Assembly: GCA_036833455.1 (NCBI GenBank)
Contig: DAITPU010000001.1
Span: 182,397-237,015 of the forward strand
Origin: a bacterium
GTDB lineage: Archaea > Nanobdellota > Nanobdellia > Pacearchaeales > GW2011-AR1
Length of the DNA stretch: 54,619 bases
Reading direction: 5' to 3'
The notes beneath the pieces were generated by a model. The model saw nothing but the letters and a program-made list of their open reading frames with translations, had not been told where the DNA came from and did no database searches. Position numbers and translations under genes: made by a program. Position 1 is the stretch's first letter, and each line of letters opens with the position of its first letter. Of this stretch, positions 1 through 48,392 are shown piece after piece.

Positions 1-175
1 AACCAAGAGGATCTATTTGAATTATAAAATCTGTCCCTTGACCACATGCACTTTGATCAACGTTAAAAAGATTCCCTCCTACATTATTTTTATATCCGGT
101 AAAACTTATCGAGGATACAACTACTCCGGAAAATAAAATTAAAGATAAAAACAAAATTAAATTTTTCGACTTCAT
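1..175 (-). CDS. 5' part of a secreted protein that runs off the window edge; not in the ORF track
   Basis: Hand translation from ATG at 175: MKSKNLILFLSLILFSGVVVSSISFTGYKNNVGGNLFNVDQSACGQGTDFIIQIDPLG, open to base 1. Sec-type signal peptide. ATGA overlap with the stop of 172..1998. Confidence 0.8.
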   Translation of the reverse strand, partial: MKSKNLILFLSLILFSGVVVSSISFTGYKNNVGGNLFNVDQSACGQGTDFIIQIDPLG

Positions 176-1998
176 TCGAATTTTACCTCTATTTTATTTG
201 TCTCTAAAATTAAATAATTCTCCTGTAAATCTTTAAAAGAAAATGGATTGTTTACTTTATCCACCGATAAAATTAATTTATCAAAACTATCTAATAAAAA
301 TTCAGAGAAATAAATTTCCGTGTTTCCTCCTCCAATTAAAACATTCGAAAGATTTTGTGAAGGAATTTCTATTTCAAAACACTCTTCTCTACTGGCTCCA
401 AAAATCCCTAAAAGCCCATTTCTCGAAACTTCTAAACATTGTTCTCTCGTTCCTCCTGGGAATTGAATATTCCCTTCTTCAAATAAATTTACTTGAAGAT
501 TATAATTTCCTTCACTAAGTTTTATAGATTTATCTTCTGGTAAATACGCACTATCTGAAAAAGAGCCAGAATCAAAGGTTATCAAAGCTTTTCCAGAATA
601 AATATTTCCTCCAACAAAAATTTGAACTTCTTTTTCAAAGGATTTATCCATAATAATTATTGCACTTCCCTCTTCTACACTAGAATATAATACAGAAGTA
701 GTTTTATATCCCTCTGCTTCAGCAATTAGATTTCCATTTATACATTGAGGAAGTAAAGCTTCCAATTCTCCTATTTGAGTTAATCCCAAAGAACAAACTT
801 CTCCTAAGCAATCATAACTCATTTTTGCTTCAACAGGAGATAGATCTCTATCATAAACTGAAATTTTTGTTTGAGTATTTGAATTTTCACAAATTTCTAA
901 GTTTTGACTAAACCAACTTTCTCCTTCCAGAGGCTTCCTAGGTTGATTGCCTTCTATTAAAACTACAACTGGAAACTGAAATAATTCTCCATCCTTAAAT
1001 ACTTGGATCAAAACAGGATACCTATAGTTGTAAACATAATGGTAAGGAACATAACAAAAACCTAAAATTCCAAAACCTTCTTTGTTTCCAACGGGTTCTG
1101 CAATTAACTTTTCTCCTTGGCTAGGATTGACTTCAAAATAATTAGGCCAGTTTTCCATACTTACAAATCTTATTTCCCCCTCTTGAGGAAGACCTTTAAT
1201 TTTAAAATAATCTGAAGAGGCACCTTCATTTTTTAAAGAAATTATATTTTCAACAGTAGCTGTTCTAACTTCTGAATAAACTTCTCTTGCATCCCAAGAC
1301 AGAGGGGAGCAACTTATTTCAAGCCCATCAACAGGAGCATTCAGTCTTAAAACATCAATCGTATAATTTTCTAAAAACATAGAATTTTTCTGCAAATCGT
1401 AAACTTCTTTTGAAATAGAATAAAGTTCGCCTATCTTAGAAGGAACTCTTGTTTCAAATTTACTAAATACAAAAGAATCTTCTCCTTTTTTAACACTTAA
1501 ATCTATTTTAGTTTCAACATCTAAATAATCCTCACTTATCTTTACAAAAGACTTTGGAGTTCCAAATTCAATTTCATATCCCTGATCGTAAAGTTCATTT
1601 AAAACACAATTTTTTATCTTAGAATCCAAATAAGATTCCAAATCCACTTCCATTTTTTCTAAAGAAGGTATATTTTCTTTTTGAATTCCCACAGGATTTA
1701 AATAAAACCAATAAGGAATATCTCTACCAAGAAAATCCAGATGTGAAGAAAAAGGCGAATATCTAGAAGAAACTTCATAATTTTGTTTTCCTATATTTCC
1801 TCCATAAAAACCCAACATTGAAATTCCAGTTCTTGAATATTCTTCTAAACAATAAACAAACTTTGTTTCAACTGGAACTAAAGAAGAAGGAACATAATTT
1901 TTTTTAAAAGAATCTTTAAAAATAAGATAACTTGCAAATGCTAAGACAAGAAAAATAGCGACTATAATGAAAATAGTTATCTGCCCTCTTTTATCCAT
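172..1998 (-). CDS. Class III signal peptide (KRG|QITIFII) surface protein, 608 aa, Cys-containing
   Basis: N-terminus MDKRGQITIFIIVAIFLVL. The N-terminal domain aligns by eye with 39916..40671 (CLE..GG; PSLE..E..L.SYL...I.NC; QGY.I..G). Confidence 0.85.
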   Translation of the reverse strand: MDKRGQITIFIIVAIFLVLAFASYLIFKDSFKKNYVPSSLVPVETKFVYCLEEYSRTGISMLGFYGGNIGKQNYEVSSRYSPFSSHLDFLGRDIPYWFYLNPVGIQKENIPSLEKMEVDLESYLDSKIKNCVLNELYDQGYEIEFGTPKSFVKISEDYLDVETKIDLSVKKGEDSFVFSKFETRVPSKIGELYSISKEVYDLQKNSMFLENYTIDVLRLNAPVDGLEISCSPLSWDAREVYSEVRTATVENIISLKNEGASSDYFKIKGLPQEGEIRFVSMENWPNYFEVNPSQGEKLIAEPVGNKEGFGILGFCYVPYHYVYNYRYPVLIQVFKDGELFQFPVVVLIEGNQPRKPLEGESWFSQNLEICENSNTQTKISVYDRDLSPVEAKMSYDCLGEVCSLGLTQIGELEALLPQCINGNLIAEAEGYKTTSVLYSSVEEGSAIIIMDKSFEKEVQIFVGGNIYSGKALITFDSGSFSDSAYLPEDKSIKLSEGNYNLQVNLFEEGNIQFPGGTREQCLEVSRNGLLGIFGASREECFEIEIPSQNLSNVLIGGGNTEIYFSEFLLDSFDKLILSVDKVNNPFSFKDLQENYLILETNKIEVKFE

Positions 1999-11623: not shown

Positions 11624-12229
11624 ATGAAAAAAATTTCTTCTGGGGCTGAAGCAATAATTTACCTCGATAAAAATAAAATAATAAAACACAGAATTTCAAA
11701 GTCCTATCGCCATCCTGAATTAGACAAAAAAATAATAAAACAAAGAACAAAAGCTGAAATAAAAATATTGATTTCTGCTTCAAAAATTGTTTCTGTACCT
11801 TTACCCGAAACTAAAAAAGAAGAAAGCAAAATAATTATGCCGTTAATAAAAGGAGATAAACTATCTGAAAAATTAGATACTTATGCTTTAGAAAAACAAA
11901 AAAAATTGATGTTTAACTTGGGAAAAGAAACCGCAAGCTTACATAAAGCAGGAATTATACATGGAGATTTAACTACTAGCAATTTAATCTATAAAGATAA
12001 AAAAATATATTTTATAGATTTTGGATTAGGTTCTCTTAATGGAAAATATGAAGATAAAGGGGTTGATTTGCATCTCCTTTCTCAAGCAATTGATGCGAAA
12101 CATCCTAAAAATTCAAAGAAACTATTTGAAAATTTTAAAAAAGGATATTCTTCTAAAGACAAAGAAGAAGCAGAAAAAATTTTTGAAAAATTAGAAAAAA
12201 TTGAAAGAAGAAGAAGGTACAAACATTAA
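11624..12229 (+). CDS. bud32: KEOPS kinase Bud32 (stand-alone)
   Basis: GAEA, K.RISK.YRHPELD, HGDLTTSN, IDFGLG, DKGVDL, RRRY. Confidence 0.93.
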   Translation: MKKISSGAEAIIYLDKNKIIKHRISKSYRHPELDKKIIKQRTKAEIKILISASKIVSVPLPETKKEESKIIMPLIKGDKLSEKLDTYALEKQKKLMFNLGKETASLHKAGIIHGDLTTSNLIYKDKKIYFIDFGLGSLNGKYEDKGVDLHLLSQAIDAKHPKNSKKLFENFKKGYSSKDKEEAEKIFEKLEKIERRRRYKH

Positions 12230-15200
12230 TTTAATAAATTGCATCTTTGCCCAACATAAGAATTTGTTGAATTTATTCCATTCAAATATTTTGCAATGAG
12301 CAGGGCATCAGCAGAATTTATATTATTATCTTTGTTTGTATCTAAGCAACAAACATTCTCATAAGGAGAAATTCTTTGTACAAAAATATTCAATATTGTT
12401 GAAGCATCATCGATATCAATTTGCCCATCGCCATTCGCATCTCCAATTAAAGAATTATTAAGACACCTATAATATTTAACTATTCCTGTATTTTGGGGAT
12501 TTGCATTCCACATGGGCCATAAATTTTGATGAGTATTATTTGTTTTCCAAGATTTTACTTTTAATCCATAAATAGTTCCTCCAAAACTTCCTGATCCAAA
12601 AAACATCTCCAGTAAACCATCTCCGTCTATATCTTCAATTGCTAATCCAGAATTCAAAGAAACGTCAAAATCTAAAGGAAAACCTTCTAGCATATTACCT
12701 TCTATATCCCATGCATAAATTTTTCCATTAGGAGAAATGGTTAGAATATCTTGTTTTCCATCACCATTAACATCTGCTATTTGAGGAGAACCCTCAAAAT
12801 AAGGATTTACTTCTTGAGGCCACCCGCTTGAAATAATTGGGATAAAAGAAGATCCAGAAACATCTAAAAAAGAAACATAATTTTTATTAATGTTTGTAAA
12901 AGAAGAGATAACTTGTTCAATCCCTTCATTTTTCAAGTCAACAATCGTTAATTTTGATGAAGGATAATCATTGTTTGGATAAGTATTATGATTTCCTGTA
13001 TTTAAATCAATTTTTGTTAAAATTGCTCCCTGCTGATAAAAGAAGTAATTTCTATTGTTTTTAAAGTCATTAAGTATGTATGCATCCAAGTCTCCTCTAG
13101 GAACAAGATACTTAGAAGAAGTAGATGAAGTTAAATTTTTCTTTAGGATGCCTTTATCTGAATAAACCAAAACATATTTATCTCTATGAAAAATAATTAT
13201 CTCTTTTTTTCCATCTCCATCTAAATCATAAACTTTTGGAAAAGAGGCAAAATAGTTTTCATTTATTGGCCAACCTTCTTTATAACTTCCATTTCCCTCC
13301 AAAACTGCAAGAGTATCAAAGCGAATGTTTTCAATAGGACCAAGATCCTCCCCTATTGCAACAACTACCTCAAAATTTCCGTCGTTATCTAAATCTATTA
13401 ATGAAGAACTTCCTCTTGTTTGTCTCAAAGAAGTAAAATTATAAGAATAATTATTAAACACAAAAGGATCACAATTATTATTCCACCCCAATACAGGAGA
13501 TCCATCTTCTTTAAATGCAAATCCACAAAAACTTTTAGAACTATCATTATAAAAAAATCCTGCCCAAGGAATAGAAATTATTTCTTTTTTACCATCCCCA
13601 TCTATATCTCCTACTAGAGGGGGTGCGATGGGAACCCCTTCTCCAGAACTAACTCCTGATCCAGTATCTATAGGCCATCCAGATAAAAGAACTCCTTTTG
13701 AATCCCAAACAGAAATTATGCCCCCAAGATCAACAATAATTTCTTTTTTACCATCTCCATTTATATCTTCTAAAATAGGGGTTGAACCCACTGAATATTG
13801 ACGAGCATCCTCGATTTTATTAGGCCATCCATCTAAGATCTCAAAATAAGAAGAATAAGTCATATTGGCAAAAAGTTCATTAGTTACATTTTTTACTATA
13901 CTAACATTAACAAAAAATGTTTTGCAAAGAGTATTTGTTATTTTAATCTCTCTTTCTCCAGAATCTAACTTTAATAAAAAAGAATCGTGAATAATCTTGC
14001 CCCTATAAGAATACTTTCCAGTGTTTAAATTCTTAACATAAACTTTTGATTCGGGAATATTTGAAGAAATATTTAAAAATCCATAATTTTTAGAAGAAAC
14101 ACAACTATCTGTCAAAGAGAAATTCGAATCTTCGCAATCTGGAATCGGATTATTTGAACAAGAAATAGGACAATTATTTGGTTTCTGATCTCCTGTTCCC
14201 CAATAACAAAATCCGTCCTGATCATTATCTTCGCAAGAAATGTTATTTGGGTTTGGAATTAAAGGGCCAGTTACAGCAAAAAGCAAAAATGATTCAATAT
14301 ATGAATCTCCTATAGCTATCCTAAAATATCCATTTTCTCCCCATCCACTCCCCCAACTATTTTTAACAATCCAATAAGAAAGTCCGTCCTCCTCTCCATA
14401 TCCTACAATTAAAACTGCATGAGCTCCTAAAATTACATCTATAGAATGAGAATAAATTCCTCCAGAATAACTAGGAAAATCCTGATACACAATCATTCCT
14501 GCTTCAACAGGACCTTTTTCAACTAGAGTTCTTTTCAAAGATTCAATATCTTGTAAAGGGACTAGTTTATAATTTGTAATAGCAAAAGAAGTCTGATTCC
14601 AATTAGAACATTTTTGAGAGCAATAGACAGGCCCTGTTGAACAAGATCCATGGCCAAGGGCATCACAAGCTACATAAGGGAAGCATGATTCTAACACAGC
14701 TTTATTTATTTGTAAATACTTAAATAAATTTAAAAAACCTGGTACAGAAAGACCGTGGCATCCCCCTGGATGAAAACAAGAAATTAAATCCTGCTCAGAC
14801 AAATTTAAATCCAAATATTGATTATAATATGTGTTTGCTTGGCCCTCGACTAATCCCAAAGTCCCAAAAGCCCAACAACTTCCACAAGAAGCTTGATTTT
14901 TAACTGGAGTTATATAATTTTTCCCATGGACATTTCTCCAATCAAATTCCAGAGGAAGTTCTGAAAAATTAGTAGAATTTTGCACGCTAAAACCCGTAAT
15001 TTTTACATCGATTATGCCTTTTAAAAATAAAAAAGATTTGGAAAAAATTTTATTCAGAGGATTAAATAAAAAAGTAAGAACCTCTCCTTCCTTAATTAAA
15101 AAAAATTTATTTTCTTTATTTTCATAAAATTCAGAAGAGGGATTAGAAATAAAAGAAGATAAATCTCCCTTAAATTCTAACTCTCTAATAATTTCTTCAT

Positions 15201-15588
15201 CAATTTCAATTCCAAGATATCTTTTTTGATCTTCAACACTTAATTTAGAAATTTCATTTTCTTCTGCAACCCAATCTAAACCTGAATCTTCTATCTGATT
15301 ATTGATTTCCTCTACAGAAATTTCATTTGTTGCAAAAGAACTAGGAATGAAGGGATTCTCAGAAGGATTTGGAATCTCAATTGGAGTAGAATCTTTATTT
15401 ATGGAAACAGAATCTTTTGAAGCTTTATTTGTTTTAGAATCAAACTCAAAAGAAGAGGGCAATCCCTGTGAATTTTTTTTAAAAACTCCATTGCTTGCAA
15501 AAACCATTACAAATGCTATTAAAGCTACAACAAGAAAGACCGTAGCCAAAATTTCAATCCCCCCTTTTTTATGGAAAAAGTTAAACAT
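12226..15588 (-). CDS. Secreted multidomain C1A (papain-like) cysteine protease with PEGA-like domain, FG-GAP/VCBS-type repeats and C-terminal dockerin-like domain
   Basis: QASCGSCWAF, HAVLIVGYG, KNSWG.WGE.GY; several DxxGDGxxEI/V repeats; paired Ca-binding loops GDANGDGQIDIDDA and DTNKDNNINSADAL; N-terminal TM. Confidence 0.92.
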   Translation of the reverse strand: MFNFFHKKGGIEILATVFLVVALIAFVMVFASNGVFKKNSQGLPSSFEFDSKTNKASKDSVSINKDSTPIEIPNPSENPFIPSSFATNEISVEEINNQIEDSGLDWVAEENEISKLSVEDQKRYLGIEIDEEIIRELEFKGDLSSFISNPSSEFYENKENKFFLIKEGEVLTFLFNPLNKIFSKSFLFLKGIIDVKITGFSVQNSTNFSELPLEFDWRNVHGKNYITPVKNQASCGSCWAFGTLGLVEGQANTYYNQYLDLNLSEQDLISCFHPGGCHGLSVPGFLNLFKYLQINKAVLESCFPYVACDALGHGSCSTGPVYCSQKCSNWNQTSFAITNYKLVPLQDIESLKRTLVEKGPVEAGMIVYQDFPSYSGGIYSHSIDVILGAHAVLIVGYGEEDGLSYWIVKNSWGSGWGENGYFRIAIGDSYIESFLLFAVTGPLIPNPNNISCEDNDQDGFCYWGTGDQKPNNCPISCSNNPIPDCEDSNFSLTDSCVSSKNYGFLNISSNIPESKVYVKNLNTGKYSYRGKIIHDSFLLKLDSGEREIKITNTLCKTFFVNVSIVKNVTNELFANMTYSSYFEILDGWPNKIEDARQYSVGSTPILEDINGDGKKEIIVDLGGIISVWDSKGVLLSGWPIDTGSGVSSGEGVPIAPPLVGDIDGDGKKEIISIPWAGFFYNDSSKSFCGFAFKEDGSPVLGWNNNCDPFVFNNYSYNFTSLRQTRGSSSLIDLDNDGNFEVVVAIGEDLGPIENIRFDTLAVLEGNGSYKEGWPINENYFASFPKVYDLDGDGKKEIIIFHRDKYVLVYSDKGILKKNLTSSTSSKYLVPRGDLDAYILNDFKNNRNYFFYQQGAILTKIDLNTGNHNTYPNNDYPSSKLTIVDLKNEGIEQVISSFTNINKNYVSFLDVSGSSFIPIISSGWPQEVNPYFEGSPQIADVNGDGKQDILTISPNGKIYAWDIEGNMLEGFPLDFDVSLNSGLAIEDIDGDGLLEMFFGSGSFGGTIYGLKVKSWKTNNTHQNLWPMWNANPQNTGIVKYYRCLNNSLIGDANGDGQIDIDDASTILNIFVQRISPYENVCCLDTNKDNNINSADALLIAKYLNGINSTNSYVGQRCNLLN

Positions 15589-30230: not shown

Positions 30231-32378
30231 TTACATTCCAGACAAAACAACGCTGCTTAAAATAGAAAGGACCAAAGTTGCAATTAAAGCCACAACAAAA
30301 TAAAGTCCAATCCCTGATTTTAAATTTAATCCAGTTTTATTTACTCTTTCTAAAGGATCATTTCCTGAATCTATTGAAACCAAAGTTGAAGTTAATATAA
30401 AAATCATCTGAATTAAATAAATTCCGACGGAAATTTGTAAAAAATAAGGAGGAATCATAGCTTGATAATCAAAAATAGTTAAAATAGAATCTAAATTACC
30501 TAATCCTGATTCTTCCAGACCTTCTAATCCTCCAACATCTAATTTACCTAAAATATTTGTTATCATTGCTGCAAGTCCAACAACCACTCCAGATAATAAA
30601 GGAGCTAAAAAGGTCATATTGCTTTTCATATCTGAAACAACTTCAGCAAGCATATCTCTTAATCTTATACTTATTTTATCTATATTTTTAACATATTCCG
30701 ATATACTCATTAAAGAAATTGCGGCTATCTTTAATCCTTTTTTACTAGATTCTATCAAAACCCTCATTGAAGTAGCAATTAATTGAGAAGGATAAAATCT
30801 TATTGAACCCCTATTTTTATCAAAAATTGCTTTTTCAACGCTCATCCCCATTTGTTGAATGTTATAATTAACTCTTTTAAAAAAATCTCCTGTTCTAAGA
30901 CCTTTATTAGATTCCGCTACTTTTCCAAAAACTAATTCAGGAGGAACCCCATTTCCCAACCTATTTCCTAATTGAAACAATGAATTGTTAAATTCTAATT
31001 CAAGTTCTTTTGTTTTTTCTCTTTCCAGTATCAGTTCTTTTGTTCTTTCTTTATATGAAATTGAAAAAAACAAGGCCACCGAAAGAGGAAATAACATTCC
31101 CAAAAATAAAGCTCCAACTCCAAAAGGCCCCTTCACTCCTGTTGAACTATCTACAAAACCAAAAAAACTTCCTCCCATAAAAGAAAGACCTATACTTTCA
31201 AAACTAAAATCTCTTTCAATTCCTACAAGTTCCGGAAAACCAGTATATCCAAAAATAAGAGGAAGTAAACTTAATATTAAAAGAGGAAAAACAAAAATAA
31301 ACGCTTTTGTATAAACTTTTTTATTTATAAACCGAGGATAAAGAGGATTTCTCTCTAAAAAAGAAGACTCCCCATGACCTCCTGGACGAAGCATTAAAAC
31401 CTTATCAGTTAAATAAAAAACCATAAAAGGAATAATCATATTAAACAAAACAAAAACATGAACATAACTAAACATCCCCCCAATCATTGCAGAAGCAAGA
31501 GGAATTAATGCCAAACCTAAAGTAGGTAAAACAACTCCCAACATATAAACATTAGTTAAAGGACTTCTAACTCCATGACTAAATTTAAGCATCTTTTCAT
31601 AAACTCCATCAAGAACAACTTGAAGGGATTTTTCTAGAGTGGAAATTCTTCTTGATTCTTCTGGCTCAAATAAACTACTCTCTATCAAATGAAAAGATTC
31701 TATAAACTCATTTGCATACCCTCTCCACTTCTCAAGATAATTGTCTAAACTTTCTTTTATAGTAGAATAGCGCCCAACTTCCACATTATAAAAAACTTTT
31801 TTAAAATCTAAGGAAAGAGGATATTCTAAATGCTGTGCAGCAAAAGCAATCGCTTTTTCTAAATTAGGAGTGTGTCTCATATAAACAACTATATAAAGAA
31901 TTGCAGGAACCATTTGACTTGAAGCTTTTAATCTCCATTTATTAGCGATTCTGGCAGGATACCCTTGCATAAAGTAAAACAAAAAAATTGAAACCACCAA
32001 CATCAAAACAAAAAATAAAGTTGGAAAATTTTCTCCAACTAAGAAAAAAGAAATTGAAAGTAAAAGCCCAATAAAAAAAACGCTCAAAAAACACATAACA
32101 CTTAATGTGATGGCTTGCCAAGGTTCTATAGAAAGGTGTGCAAAATCCAGATGTTTTTTTATTTCCTCTTCGTCTTTTTTAGAAGGTCTCAACTTAAATG
32201 TTTTTCCAAGAGTATGTGCCCAACGTTCATAGGTTGAATATTCTACAGAAATCTCTCCTTTAAATTTTTCATAAGATTGGCTATATTGTTTATCCTCTTT
32301 TGAAGATTCTATTTGGCTTTCTATTTTTGCTCCATATTTCTTAAGAATCTCATCTACACTTGGTTTTTTTTGGGGCAT
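30231..32378 (-). CDS. Type IV pilus/archaellum platform protein (TadC/ArlJ, T2SS-F-like, two domains)
   Basis: Two cytoplasmic-plus-TM halves (VPAILYIVVYMRHTPNLE; GNRLGNGVPPE). ATG at 32378 preferred over TTG at 32402. Confidence 0.88.
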   Translation of the reverse strand: MPQKKPSVDEILKKYGAKIESQIESSKEDKQYSQSYEKFKGEISVEYSTYERWAHTLGKTFKLRPSKKDEEEIKKHLDFAHLSIEPWQAITLSVMCFLSVFFIGLLLSISFFLVGENFPTLFFVLMLVVSIFLFYFMQGYPARIANKWRLKASSQMVPAILYIVVYMRHTPNLEKAIAFAAQHLEYPLSLDFKKVFYNVEVGRYSTIKESLDNYLEKWRGYANEFIESFHLIESSLFEPEESRRISTLEKSLQVVLDGVYEKMLKFSHGVRSPLTNVYMLGVVLPTLGLALIPLASAMIGGMFSYVHVFVLFNMIIPFMVFYLTDKVLMLRPGGHGESSFLERNPLYPRFINKKVYTKAFIFVFPLLILSLLPLIFGYTGFPELVGIERDFSFESIGLSFMGGSFFGFVDSSTGVKGPFGVGALFLGMLFPLSVALFFSISYKERTKELILEREKTKELELEFNNSLFQLGNRLGNGVPPELVFGKVAESNKGLRTGDFFKRVNYNIQQMGMSVEKAIFDKNRGSIRFYPSQLIATSMRVLIESSKKGLKIAAISLMSISEYVKNIDKISIRLRDMLAEVVSDMKSNMTFLAPLLSGVVVGLAAMITNILGKLDVGGLEGLEESGLGNLDSILTIFDYQAMIPPYFLQISVGIYLIQMIFILTSTLVSIDSGNDPLERVNKTGLNLKSGIGLYFVVALIATLVLSILSSVVLSGM

Positions 32379-32433
32379 TTTATCACTTCTTTTATATAAC
32401 AATTAAAAAAAAATAATTAATAAATGTTTAGAA

Positions 32434-34722
32434 TTAGATCCTTCTTAATCTTAATTCTTCATTTAACCATTTTTGCCATTCTGGAAAAACTCTTTCTTTC
32501 AAAGGCAACCCTATTTCTTTAATAACTGAATCTGAAATTTCATGGAATTTGTGAGTTGAAAGTGCGTTAAATTCTGCTTCGAGCAAATCTTTCATTCCGC
32601 TAGCTCTTGCGACTTCTACTAATCTTTCCTTAATTTTTGAACGAAGTAAAATATTATCATAAACCGCTTCCCAATTTCCTGCCCATCCTTTAACTTTAGA
32701 AGCAATATCCTTAATTGTTTCGGAATCTCCATTTATTAAAGCATCACTAACTTCCAACTCATCTTTTTCAACATTATATAACATTAAATCTTTGAACCCC
32801 CCTTCTAGCAAAGGATCCGATGTCCAATGTTTTCTAACTTCCGTTATTTGCAAAAGTCTTCTCCAAGAATTAAGACCATCAGCTGATTTAATTGGGTTTG
32901 CTATTGCAATTATATCTGTTGCTTTAAAAGACGTTGCTGGAACTCCTATATCATTTACAACTCGATCAAAAACCCCATAAGGGCTTGCACCGTGAATTGT
33001 TCCTGCTACAACATTTGCGAGAGCCCCAACTCTCATAGCTTCATAAAGAGCTTTAGCCTCAGTACTTCTAACTTCTCCAACTATCAAAGAACTATCTCCT
33101 AACCTTAAACTTGTCCTTATTCCTTCCTCCGCACTAACTTCCGAAGTCGTTTTTAATAAAGCTGAACGAACCTTCATTCTTAATATATTAAAGTTAAGTC
33201 TTCTCAAAGCTTCAACTGGAAGTTCTAAAGAATCCTCTATTGTAATTATCCTAGATTTAGGATTTATCTCCAACATTAAACTTCCCAAAAGAGAAGTTTT
33301 CCCTGAAGAACGTGTTCCGGCTATTAACAATGTTCTTGCCCCGTCAATTAAAAAACTAAATAATCCTGCTGCCATGGGGTTTATCATTCTATTGTCTATA
33401 AATAAAGGTAAAGTCCAGGGAGATTCTCTATGCCTTCTTATTGAATAAGCTAATCCATCTGGACTCAAAGGCCCTTGAACAATAGCAATTCTTGCTCTTA
33501 ATTGTCCTATTTCTAATTGTGTATCTAAAATCGGATTGGATTCGTCTAAAGGACGCCCTGAAATCATCCTAAATTTTGCGGCCCAAGAATCTGCATCTTC
33601 TTTACTAGGAAGTATATTTGTCAAACACTCATCATAATCTTGATGCCTAATATAAATAGGAACTTGAGAAATGGGTGCATTCAAAGAAATGTCTTGAATA
33701 AATTTATCCTGAAGTAAAACTTCAACTAATCCAAATCCAATAGTATGTCTAACCAAAATTGTCGCAAGTTTATTTAAATTTCCAAAATCAATTTTAAAAT
33801 TTTTCGTCGTAGCTAAATCTCTAATCAAATCTTTGGATATATTAAAAAAAACTTGTCTTGTTCTCTCTGTATCTGTAAACTCCTCTGCCTTGGGCTGATG
33901 CTCGATTAAGACACTTCTTGCTAAATTAAGTAAATTATTTTCCTCTTCACTTAAATTACTTTCAGGAGGATTTAAATGATAAAATAATTTGGATTCATTT
34001 TTACTTTTCAAGATATAGACTACACTCTTATCATATTCATTTAAAAAAATTTCATATTGGTCAACTATTTCGGAGAAAGAAGGAAAATCACTAACCAAAC
34101 GTGTAAAAGTAAAGTTAGGAATTGTGTCTGCCTTAAATAAATGAGAGTAAATCCCCCTATCTCCTTTCTTGTAATTATCTAAAAAGGATTTTGATTCAGA
34201 AATAATTTTTGTTTTATTTAAAAGAGAATACATTTTTTCCAATAAAAAAAGATAATTTTTTTCGTCTAAAAGAGAAGACCCCTCTAATTTTTCTAACAAT
34301 ATTTTAGAAGTAATTATTATTTTTTTTATTTCAAAATATGCTTGTAAAGGATCTCTCTTTAATTGGTATAAAAAATTAAACAATTCGTTATATCTTTTTG
34401 AAAAATTTACTTCAGAAATTTTTGCTAATTTTTCCGGAGAAAGAATTTTTTCTTGCTTTAATAAATAAACATATAAAGAAGCTATTTCTAAAAGAAGACT
34501 AGTTTCATTAAAATCGTAATTATAACTTTTATCTTGAACAAAAACTATTCTTGAAACTTGAGAATTTTCAATTAAAGCATCAATCGTTCTTTCCATTACT
34601 TCTGGGGATTCGGCCAAATTGGGAAAAAACGGAGCTCCAGAGTAATTAAAATAAATAACATCTTCTCCTCCCTCTCTTTGTACAAGATAAGAATATAACT
34701 TAGCTCCTTTTTCAAACTGCAT
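32434..34722 (-). CDS. Type II/IV secretion ATPase (VirB11/TadA/ArlI-like)
   Basis: Walker A GTRSSGKT, ITIEDSLEL, LRLG...IVGEVR, GTIHG. Confidence 0.93.
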   Translation of the reverse strand: MQFEKGAKLYSYLVQREGGEDVIYFNYSGAPFFPNLAESPEVMERTIDALIENSQVSRIVFVQDKSYNYDFNETSLLLEIASLYVYLLKQEKILSPEKLAKISEVNFSKRYNELFNFLYQLKRDPLQAYFEIKKIIITSKILLEKLEGSSLLDEKNYLFLLEKMYSLLNKTKIISESKSFLDNYKKGDRGIYSHLFKADTIPNFTFTRLVSDFPSFSEIVDQYEIFLNEYDKSVVYILKSKNESKLFYHLNPPESNLSEEENNLLNLARSVLIEHQPKAEEFTDTERTRQVFFNISKDLIRDLATTKNFKIDFGNLNKLATILVRHTIGFGLVEVLLQDKFIQDISLNAPISQVPIYIRHQDYDECLTNILPSKEDADSWAAKFRMISGRPLDESNPILDTQLEIGQLRARIAIVQGPLSPDGLAYSIRRHRESPWTLPLFIDNRMINPMAAGLFSFLIDGARTLLIAGTRSSGKTSLLGSLMLEINPKSRIITIEDSLELPVEALRRLNFNILRMKVRSALLKTTSEVSAEEGIRTSLRLGDSSLIVGEVRSTEAKALYEAMRVGALANVVAGTIHGASPYGVFDRVVNDIGVPATSFKATDIIAIANPIKSADGLNSWRRLLQITEVRKHWTSDPLLEGGFKDLMLYNVEKDELEVSDALINGDSETIKDIASKVKGWAGNWEAVYDNILLRSKIKERLVEVARASGMKDLLEAEFNALSTHKFHEISDSVIKEIGLPLKERVFPEWQKWLNEELRLRRI

Positions 34723-44141: not shown

Positions 44142-45356
44142 CTATTTATTCTTTTTTGGTACTAATGCAAAGAAGCTATATCCTTTTTTAACTTCAGAAG
44201 CTAATTTTTTTACTTCTTCTAATTTAACTTTCTCTATCTCTTTTTGAAAATTATAAAAATCTTCTGCCTTTGAAGAAACCTCTGAAGAAAGTAAATTTAT
44301 CATTTGACTTTGGGTATCTTCCATTGATAGTTGATAGTTTCCAATTATCTGCTTTTTTACTTGAATCAGTTCTTCTCGTGACAACTCCTTAGAAACCTTC
44401 TCAAACTCATCTAAGATTAAATTTTTTATTTCTTCTATTTTCTCGGGGGTTGTTCCAACATAAATAAAACTATAAGAATAATCTTTTGAAGCCCCCAAAT
44501 CCCCTTTAACCGAATAAGCTAAATTTCTTTTTTCTCTTATTTCCGAAAATAATCTTGAAGACATACCTCCCGTCATAATCATTGAAAGAACTTTTGCCGC
44601 ATAAACTCTTTTATCTGAAGACAAAGGAGAATGATATGCAAAAACAAGATTGGCTTGATCAAGTCCGTCTCTCTCTTCTATTTTCTTCCTATTTTTTAAC
44701 CTTATTTTTTGAGGGGTTGTTGTTTTTCCTTTTCCAGAAAAATTTTTACCCAAATACCTGACCAATTTGTTAAAGTCGTAATTTCCCACAACACATAAAA
44801 TTAAATTAGAAGGATTATAAATTTCTTTAAACTTCTTAACTATTTTTTCTCGATTTAAGGAATTCATAGTTTTTTCTGTTCCAATTAAAGGCTCTCCCAA
44901 ACTTCCTTCATATAAGAAAGACTGTATTTTATCCAAAACATAAATTTGGGGAGAATCCCTCCTCATTTTCATTTCTTCAAAAATAACTTTTCTCTCTTTT
45001 TTTAGTTCATTTTCATCAAAAACGGGGTTTTTTATTAAATCCGTTAAAACTTCTAACCCCAAATCTGCACTTTCTTTAGGCATCTTACACCAAAATCCAG
45101 TAATCTCTTCGGAAGTAAATCCGTTCATTTCTCCTCCATTTTTCTCAATATCTTTTGCTATTTGAAAAGCATTTCTTTTAGGAGTTCCCTTATAAAGCAT
45201 GTGTTCAATGTAATGGGAAATCCCTTTTTCATTCAATTCTTCATGAAGACCCCCTGCACGAACAGCATAAATAAAACTAACCACGGGTAAATTTCTTTTT
45301 TCAAAAACTAGAGTCAAGCCGTTGGGAAAAACCTTTTTTTTGAAATTTTGTTTCAT
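44142..45356 (-). CDS. M16 (pitrilysin-like) zinc peptidase
   Basis: G.SHYIEHMLYKGT (HxxEH), NGFTS.E.T, E..VI.EE, GGMSSRLF..IREK..LAY. Confidence 0.93.
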   Translation of the reverse strand: MKQNFKKKVFPNGLTLVFEKRNLPVVSFIYAVRAGGLHEELNEKGISHYIEHMLYKGTPKRNAFQIAKDIEKNGGEMNGFTSEEITGFWCKMPKESADLGLEVLTDLIKNPVFDENELKKERKVIFEEMKMRRDSPQIYVLDKIQSFLYEGSLGEPLIGTEKTMNSLNREKIVKKFKEIYNPSNLILCVVGNYDFNKLVRYLGKNFSGKGKTTTPQKIRLKNRKKIEERDGLDQANLVFAYHSPLSSDKRVYAAKVLSMIMTGGMSSRLFSEIREKRNLAYSVKGDLGASKDYSYSFIYVGTTPEKIEEIKNLILDEFEKVSKELSREELIQVKKQIIGNYQLSMEDTQSQMINLLSSEVSSKAEDFYNFQKEIEKVKLEEVKKLASEVKKGYSFFALVPKKNK

Positions 45357-45641: not shown

Positions 45642-46427
45642 TTATCTCTTCTTAAAAGAAATGTATCTTTCTCCTCCAAAAGAAAAATCCTCTAATAATA
45701 AAAATTCTTTTTCAATAAATTTTAAAATCCAATCCCTATTTACCCTAAATTTCTTCCTTGAAATCAAACTCTCCGTAGCAAAACTTATCACAATTAAATC
45801 TACTCTAGAAATTAGTTCTTTTATCAATTTTTTTGAAAAATCTTTTTCTAACATTTCTAAGCTATCTAATACCTTAAACAAAAAAACAATTTTTTTTCCT
45901 TCTCTTGAATCAATCATTTTTTTTATTTTTTCTATTTCAAAAAGACTTTCATGAATGGATATGGCATTAAAATTTTCTTTTTTAAAATAAGAATTAGTTA
46001 AATCAACTAATTGGCCTATCGCTTCTATTCCCGTATAAGAAACTTTCGAAGGAAAATAACTATAACTAAAACCATTTACCCCTGCGCCTAAATCAAAAAC
46101 ATTTAAGTTTTTTTCTTTAAAATTTTTAAAAATTTTTGAATAAATTTCCTTATAAAAAGGATACCTCTCTCTTGTGGAAATGTGCTTCTTTAAAACCCAA
46201 TCGGGATCAAAATTTTTATTTTGCAATAGTTTTTCACTAGAGAAAACAGTATAAACTTTTCTTAAAAGATCTCTTGTTTTCTTTATTTTTTCTTCAACCA
46301 AAAAATCGTCTGAATCCAATAAGCAATATGCTTTTTCAACATCTCTCTTTGGAAGATCTGAAAATTCTTTTTTTTCCTGTATTTTTAAAAGGGCTTCTTC
46401 CTTACTTAAATTAAATCTTTTTGCCAT
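45642..46427 (-). CDS. ArmA/Rmt/Sgm (FmrO)-like SAM-dependent rRNA methyltransferase
   Basis: HISTRER, FDLGAG.N, IVFLFKVLDSLE, VISFAT.SL..RK, terminal GGERY; motif order matches 16S rRNA m7G1405 methyltransferases as I recall them. Confidence 0.75.
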   Translation of the reverse strand: MAKRFNLSKEEALLKIQEKKEFSDLPKRDVEKAYCLLDSDDFLVEEKIKKTRDLLRKVYTVFSSEKLLQNKNFDPDWVLKKHISTRERYPFYKEIYSKIFKNFKEKNLNVFDLGAGVNGFSYSYFPSKVSYTGIEAIGQLVDLTNSYFKKENFNAISIHESLFEIEKIKKMIDSREGKKIVFLFKVLDSLEMLEKDFSKKLIKELISRVDLIVISFATESLISRKKFRVNRDWILKFIEKEFLLLEDFSFGGERYISFKKR

Positions 46428-46460
46428 TATATTTTTAAGCTAAATTTCATTTAAAATTTT
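46428..46460. promoter_or_regulatory. 33-bp divergent spacer holding two crossed TATA boxes
   Basis: Plus-strand TTTTAAG about 28 nt before ATG 46461; minus-strand TTTTAAAT about 29 nt before ATG 46427. Confidence 0.55.
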
Positions 46461-47381
46461 ATGCCTATTAACGTAAACGACCCAGAATATTCTAAAGCAG
46501 AAAAAGCTTTTCATGCGGCTTCTTCAATAGAAGAACAATTAAATGCCTTGAACAAAATGATTTCTCATGCTCCTAGCCATAAAGGTGCCGAAAATTTAAG
46601 ACAACAATTAACTACAAAAAGAAAGAAGCTTGAAGCACAATTGGAGAAAAAGAAAAAAGTAGGAAAGTCTACCAAAATAGGAATAAAAAAAGAAGATTTG
46701 CAAGCCATTATTGTTGGACTTACAAATTCCGGAAAATCCTCTTTATTAAAAATTCTTACGAATGCGAACCCAAAAATTTCTGAAATAGAATTCACAACTA
46801 ATGAACCTAAAATAGGAATGATGGATTATGAAAATACCCTAATACAGATAATTGAAATTCCTTCTGTTGAAGGAGATTTCTTTGATAAATCTTTGGCACA
46901 CACTGCAGATACAATCCTTATTTTAATTAATTCTTTTGAGGATATAGAAAAAATAGAAAAATTTCTTACCATGGCAAAAGGAAAAAGATTGATTGTTTTT
47001 AACAAATCAGATAAATTGACCTCAGAGGAAAAAAGAAAAATAGAATCCAAACTTCAAAGCAAAAAATATAATTTCGAAATTATTTCTTGCATCCCTTTTT
47101 TTAAAGAAAATAACATAGAAATTCTCAAGAAGAAGATTTTTGATTCCTTTTCAGTTTTAAGAGTTTTTACAAAAGAGCCAGGTAAAGAAAGAGAAAACAA
47201 ACCGGTTATTTTAAAACCGGGTTCAACAGTAAAAGATGTTGCAGAAAAGATCTTTAAGGGATTTTCTTTAAAAATTAAAAAAACTAGAATTTGGGGTCCT
47301 TCCTCCAAATTCGGAGGACAGGTCGTTGGTTTGAATCATAAATTAAAAAATTTAGACGTTGTAGAATTTAGCACAAAATAA
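46461..47381 (+). CDS. DRG/OBG-family GTPase with TGS domain
   Basis: AP.HKG.E.LR, GLTNSGKSS, FTT, NKSD, RVFTKEPG, G.TV.DVA..I, IWG.S.KF.GQ.VG..H.L..LDVVE. Confidence 0.88.
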   Translation: MPINVNDPEYSKAEKAFHAASSIEEQLNALNKMISHAPSHKGAENLRQQLTTKRKKLEAQLEKKKKVGKSTKIGIKKEDLQAIIVGLTNSGKSSLLKILTNANPKISEIEFTTNEPKIGMMDYENTLIQIIEIPSVEGDFFDKSLAHTADTILILINSFEDIEKIEKFLTMAKGKRLIVFNKSDKLTSEEKRKIESKLQSKKYNFEIISCIPFFKENNIEILKKKIFDSFSVLRVFTKEPGKERENKPVILKPGSTVKDVAEKIFKGFSLKIKKTRIWGPSSKFGGQVVGLNHKLKNLDVVEFSTK

Positions 47382-47384
47382 AAT

Positions 47385-48392
47385 TTATTTTAAATAATTT
47401 TTTCTTATTGGAGAGATTAGTTTTTCTAAATATTCTATAACACACAATTTTAAATCTAAAGGATGAACTTTTTTTTCGGAATAAATTTTTTCTAACTCAA
47501 AATAATCCTTTAAAAGAATGTTTCCTCCAAACTTAACTGGCCTCTTAATCTCTAAGTTTTTAAATTTAGGAAAAAGAATAAGTTTACAAATTTGGAGGAG
47601 GGGATTTTCATTAATTTCTCCTTCTGGACAGTATGCTCCATTAATTGTTTTCTTTATTTCTTCATAATCATCTACCACACTAATTCCTGAACCAGGTAAA
47701 GATTTAGACATCTTCTGTCCAGGACCTTTTAAAGAAGTTATCAAAGGAGTATGGATTGCTATAAAATTATGATTTAAAATAAGGGAAAGATCTTTTCCTA
47801 CCATGTGCACTTTTCTTTGTTCGAGGCCTCCAAGAGCAACCTCGGAATTAAGATGTTTAATATCTGCAACTTGCATTAAGGGATACAAAAGCTGAGAAAT
47901 TGTCGAGCTTTCTCCTCCTCGGGAAATCTCTTGCATGCCCCTAATACCTCTTTGAATTGTAACCTTTTGAGCTAATTTTAGTACATCTAATTGGTATTCT
48001 TTAGTGAATTGAAAATTACTCCCCAAGATAATTTCTGCATTTGAAAAACCTACTGCTTTTATTATTTTTTTCCAACGAAGAACCTCTCTTGAAATTTCTT
48101 TCTGATCGCCCTTGTGATTAAGAAAAGCGTGCAAATCTGCCAAGAGTATTTTTACCTTTATTCCAGCCCGATTTAAATCCATTAATTTTAATATTGTGGC
48201 AAAGTGACCGAGATGCATTGGTCCACTTGGTTCATAACCACAATAAACAGAAATTTCTTTTTTATTAGATAAAAATTCTTTAAATTCTTCCTCCCCCACA
48301 ATCTCCACTGTATTCCTTTTTATTAATTCCCATTTTTCATCAAAGGAAAGCTCCTCTTTACGAAATTTATTTTTTTTCTTCATAATAAACAA
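47385..48392 (-). CDS. tyrS: Tyrosine--tRNA ligase, archaeal type
   Basis: YCGYEPSG.MHLGH, LADLHAFLN, LYPLMQVADI, GG.EQRKVH, KMSKS, HP.DLK. Confidence 0.95.
   Translation of the reverse strand: MFIMKKKNKFRKEELSFDEKWELIKRNTVEIVGEEEFKEFLSNKKEISVYCGYEPSGPMHLGHFATILKLMDLNRAGIKVKILLADLHAFLNHKGDQKEISREVLRWKKIIKAVGFSNAEIILGSNFQFTKEYQLDVLKLAQKVTIQRGIRGMQEISRGGESSTISQLLYPLMQVADIKHLNSEVALGGLEQRKVHMVGKDLSLILNHNFIAIHTPLITSLKGPGQKMSKSLPGSGISVVDDYEEIKKTINGAYCPEGEINENPLLQICKLILFPKFKNLEIKRPVKFGGNILLKDYFELEKIYSEKKVHPLDLKLCVIEYLEKLISPIRKNYLK

Follow-up and report, generated by a model that had tools for sequence, protein, structure and literature searches.

What does a relative of the aminoglycoside-resistance 16S rRNA methyltransferases do in the chromosome of a DPANN archaeon? 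The question is raised by an open reading frame (ORF) on the minus strand, at 45642-46427, of a 54,619-nt stretch of DNA (contig DAITPU010000001.1 of GenBank assembly GCA_036833455.1, positions 182,397-237,015 of the forward strand), which is called the window below. The record is titled bacterium and its GTDB lineage is Archaea (Nanobdellota, Pacearchaeales, GW2011-AR1); in the NCBI taxonomy, the Pacearchaeota sit in the kingdom Nanobdellati, which equals DPANN. The methyltransferases that form 7-methylguanosine at G1405 (m7G1405) are known almost only as high-level resistance determinants of pathogens and self-protection genes of antibiotic producers, and an archaeal clade would bear on their evolutionary origin and any physiological role. 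An initial annotation proposed that the gene encodes a distant DPANN relative of ArmA, Rmt and Sgm, and this proposal is supported by profiles, predicted structure, residues and synteny. From the sequence and its setting, we consider it reasonably probable that the gene encodes a vertically inherited housekeeping small-subunit rRNA methyltransferase of Nanoarchaeota-type DPANN, making m7G1405.

Family membership and predicted fold

As a single sequence, the window protein matches the Pfam family FmrO (PF07091) with an E-value of 6.3e-6 and 26.2 bits, just below the gathering score of 27 bits, and the generic Rmt model of NCBIfam (NF000466) with an E-value of 1.5e-17 and 63.8 bits, against an equivalog cut-off of 250 bits. 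An alignment and profile, A1, was built from 40 close homologues (about 57% identity), to which all statements on invariance below refer; FmrO is matched by 38 of these 40 at E<0.01 (best 8.3e-12). Since the protein lies below the thresholds while its close homologues match FmrO, it is a member of the Arm/FmrO superfamily and not an NCBI 'Rmt equivalog'.

In a phmmer search of the PDB with the single sequence, the best match was Sgm (3lcu, 1.6e-4), followed by RmtC (4.6e-4). With the A1 profile, the matches were RmtC (1.6e-10), Sgm (4.5e-9), ArmA (1.2e-8), RmtB (5e-7, via the N-terminal domain) and also RmtF, and the first generic methyltransferase appeared at 4.6e-3, after family members only. 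Moreover, hhalign aligned A1 to a clinical reference set (RmtC, RmtB1, ArmA, RmtG and RmtF1, taken from annotated plasmids) with 99.6% probability and an E-value of 1.4e-24 over 243 columns, the N-terminal domain being covered. The AlphaFold2 model of the window protein has a predicted local distance difference test score (pLDDT) of 91.3 and a predicted template modelling score (pTM) of 0.89, and contains the two-domain architecture of a helical N-terminal domain and a Rossmann C-terminal domain, with N-terminal helices at residues 9-17, 27-36, 44-59, 65-69 and 75-81. When it was compared with the PDB by Foldseek, the 15 top matches were all m7G1405 methyltransferases (RmtC, Sgm, RmtB, RmtF and ArmA) with full-length template modelling (TM) scores of 0.59-0.79, and the next match, WbdD, had a TM score of about 0.49, and its E-value was worse by about three orders of magnitude. 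The profile comparison and structure superposition proposed in the initial annotation therefore returned the family itself and no unrelated class I methyltransferase. The NpmA/Kam m1A1408 family never turned up among the sequence or fold matches, and neither did the housekeeping helix 44/45 enzymes RsmH, RsmI, RsmF and KsgA/Dim1. Membership and fold are established directly by these comparisons, and the protein is a true but divergent and derived member of the ArmA/Rmt/Sgm family of m7G1405 methyltransferases.

Conservation of the cofactor-binding and docking residues

All motifs listed in the initial annotation occur in the ORF in the claimed order (Table 1). HISTRER is found in Sgm itself, as it stated and as seen in the alignment with Sgm (3lcu), and the consensus that it ascribed to ArmA, RmtB and Sgm agrees with the alignment of the clinical enzymes, which shows HxSTxER, DxxCGLNP, LLFKLLPLL and SFPTRSL. 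Functional residues were taken from the papers on the Sgm structure (PMC2896518) and the cryo-electron microscopy of RmtC on the 30S subunit (PMC10288597), and their equivalents were mapped through HMMER and hhalign alignments, which are uncertain in the motif III loop and in the loop 220-233.

In motif X, residues H82, S84, T85, E87 and R88 are invariant. S84 corresponds to RmtC S107, and E87/R88 to Sgm E107/R108. The motif X Arg binds the carboxylate of the cofactor, which the Ser also contacts, and Sgm R108 functions in cofactor binding (PMC2896518, PMC10288597). In motif I, residues D112 (Sgm D131), G114, G116 (Sgm G135) and N118 are invariant, and the Pro that follows the Asn is replaced by Gly (NP to NG) in the window type and a sister subgroup, whereas NP is kept in Woesearchaeota relatives. 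Furthermore, the invariant E135 aligns with Sgm D156 and RmtC D160, which bind the cofactor ribose, and the invariant K185 with RmtC K204 and Sgm K199, both by HMMER and by hhalign. RmtC K204 is the universally conserved motif IV Lys that contacts N7 of G1405 (PMC10288597).

The N-terminal domain also retains residues of the ribosome-docking surface. The invariant F62 pairs with RmtC Y60, the aromatic residue stacked between the cosubstrate and G1405 (PMC10288597). R52, also invariant, pairs with RmtC R50, which docks on h45, and R56, which is Arg or His among the homologues, pairs with RmtC H54, which stabilises the rRNA distortion; the nearly invariant F22 pairs with the docking residue RmtC Y21, and K49 with RmtC K47 (hhalign). 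In case of the C-terminal loop, in which RmtC R241 and M245 lie and which distorts helix 44 (PMC10288597), the window protein has a basic loop of similar length (220-233), where RmtC R241 pairs with R224 (hhalign) or K225 (HMMER) and the counterpart of RmtC M245 is ambiguous. The importance of S107, D160, K204, Y60, R50 and H54 in RmtC is known from experiments (PMC10288597), and the conservation of these key residues is likewise a direct observation.

Distribution and three archaeal subgroups

The protein database contains 961 homologues, the best 120 of which share 48-62% identity with the window protein, are about 255 residues long and are hypothetical proteins, where named, from metagenome-assembled genomes of Nanoarchaeota, Pacearchaeota or Woesearchaeota. 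A scan found the window-type gene in 253 GTDB species representatives, and a profile search of 1.84 billion cluster representatives returned 1092 clusters at E<=1e-3, including 541 at E<=1e-10.

From the best 150 of these 1092 representatives, which are of the archaeal type, three subgroups were defined, all Nanoarchaeota by their source names. The window type has HxSTxER, NG, the motif IV Lys and SFAT. The second, with HxSSxxR, has Gln or Asn in place of the motif IV Lys. The third is canonical-looking, with NP and SFPT or SFAT, and is nearest to the clinical enzymes, with an hhalign E-value of 1e-43 versus about 1e-24 to 1e-25 for the other two, although such values vary with alignment depth and the A3 alignment consists of five sequences only. 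The window subtype is therefore a derived branch. The A1 and A2 subgroup alignments match each other with an hhalign E-value of 1.2e-54. The HxSSxxR subgroup (A4; for example L088 5001-5765 and L090 5001-5810), whose motif is two residues shorter than HxSTxER, occupies the same genomic slot as the window gene and is its positional orthologue, and the NP subgroup lies in a different but conserved slot. Thus the conservation of HxSTxER assumed in the initial annotation is complete among the 40 close homologues and does not extend to the sister subgroup. In the HxSSxxR subgroup, either the chemistry tolerates the replacement of the Lys or the function has shifted.

Some records (L019, DAIQOR010000004.1, and L072, DATKUW010000085.1, and also L012 and L052), titled 'bacterium', 'Bacillota bacterium' and Diapherotrites/Iainarchaeum, carry the archaeal gene with 57-60% identity. 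This suggests that these are mislabelled or contaminated bins.

Genomic context and vertical inheritance

The archaeal host claimed in the initial annotation is confirmed by the gene content: Pfam identifies an archaeal PolD DP2, a short XPF, a class I Tyr/Trp-tRNA synthetase and a Hef-like helicase in the window, and TFIIB, S3Ae, GINS and SRP54 are encoded just beyond it. Its statement that the gene diverges from a ribosome-associated DRG GTPase in a context free of mobile elements also holds, as a GTPase with MMR_HSR1 and TGS domains lies divergently upstream and no transposase or integrase adjoins the methyltransferase gene in the window. The gene has a GC content of 25% against 29% for the window, and the sliding-window composition profile shows no step near it.

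The neighbourhood was compared among 80 species-level Nanoarchaeota loci, for which the counts are lower bounds because some contigs stop inside the region. An M16-family peptidase lies directly downstream on the same strand in 74 of them and the DRG-type GTPase is divergent upstream in 73, while the tRNA synthetase is nearby in 54 and XPF in 47. Moreover, loci that differ more in the methyltransferase also differ more in its neighbours: the pairwise divergences correlate with r=0.44 for the GTPase, 0.44 for the peptidase and 0.60 for XPF, with a Mantel p of 0.001. This is the same degree of co-variation (0.44-0.60) as that of one neighbour with another (0.43-0.64), and the mean divergence of the methyltransferase (0.42) is close to that of the GTPase (0.40). 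The Tyr/Trp-tRNA synthetase is more divergent (0.57) and co-varies with no neighbour (r of about 0.1 or less), possibly as a result of paralogue mixing or gene replacement.

In Woesearchaeota with the NP type, the gene for pelota, which acts in ribosome rescue, lies directly upstream on the same strand in all four informative loci (L089 3964-5870, L091 2967-4804, L093 2970-4852 and L092 2884-4867). In three of them, the 3' end of pelota runs into the methyltransferase start by 13-16 bp; in L092 it stops 94 bp short of it. The methyltransferase gene is followed by one for a TrmB-family regulator, and the genes for PheRS alpha and beta are downstream in three of the four; in a fifth NP-type locus, the ribosomal protein genes L15e and S8e come after the methyltransferase gene. 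The arrangement with pelota suggests an operon that couples the gene with ribosome quality control.

The methyltransferase gene belongs to the core genome, is passed on vertically and lies in neighbourhoods linked to translation; its chromosomal, syntenic and co-diverging inheritance is directly established. A mobile resistance island was ruled out by the conserved synteny and the mirror-tree (co-divergence) test.

Proposed function and alternative explanations

Considering the phylum-wide spread, the translation-linked neighbourhoods and the co-divergence with neighbours, a housekeeping modifier of helix 44 fits best among the roles proposed in the initial annotation, and protection against environmental aminoglycosides, which it also proposed, is the least supported in view of synteny and co-divergence. 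We infer the substrate nucleotide, the chemistry and the atom modified, as well as the housekeeping purpose, from the properties described above. By homology with RmtC, the helical N-terminal domain would dock on the assembled small subunit at its conserved h24/h27/h44/h45 surface, and the basic C-terminal loop together with the N-terminal domain would pinch and distort helix 44. The base equivalent to G1405 of Escherichia coli would flip into the active site, where it would stack on F62 and be oriented by K185, and S-adenosylmethionine, bound by R88, S84, D112 and E135, would give its methyl group to N7. Such a constitutive ribosome modification may be tied to late small-subunit maturation or quality control. 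Selection would have acted on this role, with insensitivity to 4,6-disubstituted deoxystreptamine aminoglycosides as a side effect. The G1405 position, paired with C1496, is regarded as universally conserved.

A wider proposal, which we offer tentatively, is that G1405-equivalent methylation is constitutive throughout the Nanoarchaeota phylum. It would then be the first m7G1405 system with a housekeeping role, outside resistance and antibiotic producers, and the first case of native m7G in the decoding centre of an archaeal ribosome, coordinated with maturation or quality control linked to the DRG GTPase or pelota; the clinical Arm/Rmt enzymes would be a bacterial offshoot or sister of an old lineage of housekeeping enzymes, and the Pacearchaeota enzymes with a replaced Lys or Asp would have been retuned.

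Several observations weigh against a housekeeping enzyme that makes m7G1405. The window protein scores under the curated Pfam and NCBIfam cut-offs. The motif III Asp (Sgm D182, RmtC D188) is replaced by Ser161, which is invariant, and the D182A mutation in Sgm abolishes cofactor binding (PMC2896518); the position is Asp in the other two archaeal subgroups, and hhalign places this loop, which has an insertion of about 8 residues, ambiguously. In motif VI, SFPT is changed to SFAT, with the invariant A217 at the position of Sgm P229, a residue proposed to stack on the G (PMC2896518). RmtC K236 aligns with Glu219, where the family consensus is Arg, and K236E reduces the activity of RmtC (PMC10288597). 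There is no conserved counterpart of RmtC K20, R39, K43 and R211, N2 is shorter, and the spacing from the aromatic residue to motif X is 20 residues, versus 25-45 in the bacterial enzymes. Furthermore, the positional orthologues in sister Pacearchaeota have Gln or Asn for the 'universal' Lys and HxSSxxR for HxSTxER, so that the methylation chemistry may lack uniform constraint. The literature search found no experiment on any archaeal member. As to the target, no 16S rRNA of the organism was found: an Rfam scan of the window gave only two tRNAs, the universal 1392-1406 16S pattern is absent from all 80 related loci, and the 10 kb to the left of the window contain no rRNA. In the 16S rRNA of Haloferax volcanii, whose modifications have been mapped, acp3U, C*1404, m6A1500 and two m6,6A are the only ones (PMC2584109), and because m7G1405 is absent from it, there is no archaeal precedent for this modification. 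In the 1402-1405 fragment of Clostridium acetobutylicum, m4Cm is the only modification (PMC1904277).

Part of these observations could be explained if the protein belongs to the same family and docks at the same site but has a shifted target or chemistry, such as a neighbouring nucleotide of helix 44/45, another atom or a precursor particle, which we regard as unlikely. The active-site changes (motif III Asp to Ser, motif VI Pro to Ala, NP to NG, and E219 at the K236 position), the shorter N2, the unconserved docking residues and the orthologues with Gln or Asn at the Lys204 position would be consistent with it, and Husain et al. left the orthodox function of the archaeal homologue NEQ545 open (PMC2896518). 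However, the two residues that position G1405 directly in RmtC, Lys204 and the aromatic residue 60, show no variation in the window subfamily, which also keeps the R50/H54 pair, the fold match is full-length with the N-terminal domain included, and SFAT is also frequent in otherwise canonical Woesearchaeota members.

It is more doubtful still that the protein mainly serves to bind the ribosome in assembly or quality control, its methyl transfer having been lost or being weak or dispensable, as in KsgA/Dim1, where binding matters more than methylation. The conserved pairing with the ribosome-associated DRG-type GTPase and with pelota would suit such a role. It would also suit this role that the window protein has lost the motif III Asp, and positional orthologues the Lys of the catalytic site, while the N-terminal domain keeps its docking residues. 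Nevertheless, no variation is seen among the 40 homologues in motifs X, I and II or at Lys185, which points to selection on cofactor and base binding. In addition, Ser can still hydrogen-bond the adenine, and the formation of m7G needs no general base, so that the Gln/Asn variants need not be dead.

We consider it quite improbable that the gene is a bona fide determinant of aminoglycoside resistance or self-protection, selected by environmental aminoglycosides or acquired from bacteria, even though every characterised family member confers resistance and, were m7G1405 its product, the enzyme would bring resistance to 4,6-disubstituted aminoglycosides. It has no mobile elements around it, it occupies a fixed chromosomal slot in more than 70 species-level genomes, it co-diverges with housekeeping neighbours and it is spread over three Nanoarchaeota subgroups; the clinical genes, by contrast, are found on conjugative plasmids beside IS26, ISVsa3 and blaTEM-1 in annotated plasmid records. 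Moreover, aminoglycoside uptake depends on the electron-transport chain and respiration, an argument that was made for the candidate phyla radiation (10.64898/2026.07.13.738296), and this dependence speaks against selection for resistance in ultra-small cells that live by fermentation.

Finally, that the protein is an unrelated generic class I methyltransferase of the UbiG/Methyltransf_23 kind sharing short motifs by chance is hardly conceivable, since the weak secondary match to UbiG (TIGR01983, E=0.0019), one relative each matching Methyltransf_23 and Methyltransf_4, and JGI names of some homologues such as 'benzoquinol methylase' and 'TrmB' stand against family-specific matches many orders of magnitude better that span an N-terminal domain absent from generic methyltransferases, and UbiG, Methyltransf_23 and TrmB were ruled out by the A1 search of the PDB, Foldseek and hhalign.

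Features of the locus and neighbouring genes

The coordinates of the gene, its motifs and its neighbours are collected in Table 1. Because the divergent intergenic region of 33 bp only fits back-to-back TATA-like elements, the transcripts of the methyltransferase and the GTPase would be nearly leaderless.

Table 1. Features of the methyltransferase gene, its product and its neighbours (nt, positions in the window; aa, positions in the window protein)
Feature	Position	Strand	Description and basis
Methyltransferase gene	45642..46427	-	ATG start, 261 aa, stop codon 45642-45644; predicted Arm/FmrO-superfamily SAM (S-adenosylmethionine)-dependent rRNA methyltransferase
N-terminal helical domain	aa 1-78; nt 46194..46427	-	Putative counterpart of N1/N2 30S-docking domain; AlphaFold2 helices and hhalign pairing
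C-terminal class I (Rossmann) methyltransferase domain	aa 79-261; nt 45645..46193	-	Alignments to Sgm, RmtC and ArmA
Motif X, HISTRER	aa 82-88; nt 46164-46184	-	
FYKEIYSKIF	aa 91-100	-	
FDLGAGVN	aa 111-118; nt 46074-46097	-	Motif I, DLGAGVNG, at 112-119
GIE	aa 133-135	-	Motif II residue E135
Motif III position S161	aa 161	-	
VFLFKVLDSLE	aa 181-191; nt 45855-45887	-	Motif IV residue K185
VISFATESLISRK	aa 213-225	-	Motif VI, SFAT, at 215-218
Basic loop SLISRKKFRVNRDW	aa 220-233	-	Terminates in W233; second Trp is W77
GGERY	aa 251-255	-	
Divergent intergenic region, 33 bp	46428..46460		AT-rich, sequence read; divergent arrangement in 73/80 genomes
DRG-type GTPase (MMR_HSR1 + TGS)	46461..47381	+	Divergent neighbour; Pfam; synteny 73/80
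Small ORF, 70 aa	45398..45610	-	C-terminal transmembrane helix; between methyltransferase and peptidase; ORF list
M16-family peptidase (Peptidase_M16 + M16_C)	44142..45356	-	Co-directional, downstream; Pfam; 74/80 loci
Class I Tyr/Trp-tRNA synthetase	47385-48392	-	Adjoins GTPase; syntenic 54/80

The 70-residue ORF between the methyltransferase and the peptidase has no Pfam match. Small ORFs occupy this gap in 32 of 69 related loci (for example L026 6806-7045, L059 6807-6968 and L072 2484-2735), most of them on the same strand and with the same architecture, and loci with gaps of 20-60 bp have none. This architecture comprises a low-complexity N-terminus and a C-terminal transmembrane helix; most of the ORFs also share a recurring juxtamembrane motif, K-K-x-W-W-x-W-L-I-I, and they are probably a real, unannotated family of tail-anchored small membrane proteins. 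In two related genomes (L019 6797-7376 and L028 6823-7408), an inserted cassette of two genes separates the methyltransferase from the peptidase; by eye it resembles an AbrB/SpoVT-type antitoxin and a PIN (VapC-like) toxin.

At the other end of the stretch, immediately beyond window position 1, a 2335-residue protein with SLT (lytic transglycosylase) and DUF2272 domains (L086 11824-18831) follows a 608-residue window ORF (172-1998, minus strand) that has no Pfam match. Giant proteins of the cell surface or of host interaction have been reported in DPANN, and this may be one of them. Other large ORFs of the window, of 1120, 723 and 762 residues, are found at 12226-15588 and 30231-34722 on the minus strand.

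Comparison with known systems

If the proposed function is true, the family gains a plausible housekeeping function and a natural system for asking what m7G1405 does for the ribosome, and Nanoarchaeota ribosomes would be intrinsically insensitive to 4,6-disubstituted aminoglycosides. For annotation, matches to FmrO or Rmt models alone should not count such genes as 'antibiotic resistance genes' in resistome surveys of metagenomes.

The closest published case is NEQ545 of Nanoarchaeum equitans, which was described in 2010 by Husain et al. as the 'first archaeal ortholog' of the Arm family, with perfect C-terminal motifs and a diverged, shorter N-terminal domain missing one helix, and whose function was left open (PMC2896518). 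Compared by description only, NEQ545, also an Arm member of the Nanoarchaeota, fits the window protein; the latter belongs to the derived Pacearchaeota-type subgroup with NG, SFAT and the motif III Ser. Husain et al. presented NEQ545 as a lone outlier; the gene is found here in hundreds of species with conserved synteny. The literature search found NEQ545 in no paper beyond that of Husain et al. and no paper joining FmrO with archaea. The novelty implied in the initial annotation was overrated, as NEQ545 had been published and many homologues have already been given the Pfam FmrO tag or the JGI name '16S rRNA (guanine(1405)-N(7))-methyltransferase'. The existence of a homologue would not surprise a specialist, but that a resistance family should include a housekeeping clade spanning a whole phylum is an under-appreciated proposition that can be tested directly. 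The present analysis adds how widely the gene is spread in the phylum, its three subtypes and the changes in their active sites, the conserved neighbourhoods with the DRG GTPase and pelota, and quantitative evidence for vertical inheritance.

With the acquired enzymes RmtC, RmtB, ArmA, RmtF and RmtG (EC 2.1.1.179; 251-281 residues, against 261 here), the window protein shares the two-domain fold (TM 0.59-0.79), the order of the motifs and the key residues S107, D160, K204, Y60 and R50. However, the identity is only 16-22%, and theirs are plasmid-borne genes lying by insertion sequence elements and other resistance genes, whereas the window gene is core chromosomal. The producer enzymes Sgm, GrmA, KgmB and FmrO (PF07091) have the identical HISTRER, and R108, D131, D156 and K199 of Sgm equal R88, D112, E135 and K185; in place of D182 and P229 of Sgm, the window protein has S161 and A217. 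Their hosts are aminoglycoside-making actinomycetes, while the window gene has no biosynthetic context. Among the archaeal relatives, the NP clade of the Woesearchaeota type belongs to the same superfamily and phylum but has the canonical NP, often SFPT, and a place downstream of pelota, and the HxSSxxR clade shares the slot of the window gene but has lost the motif IV Lys. NpmA/KamB (m1A1408), RsmH, RsmI, RsmF and KsgA/Dim1 also act at the decoding-centre end of helix 44/45, although they are of different families, and the housekeeping enzymes among them, RsmH, RsmI, RsmF and KsgA/Dim1, are encoded by constitutive core genes, as the methyltransferase gene of the window appears to be.

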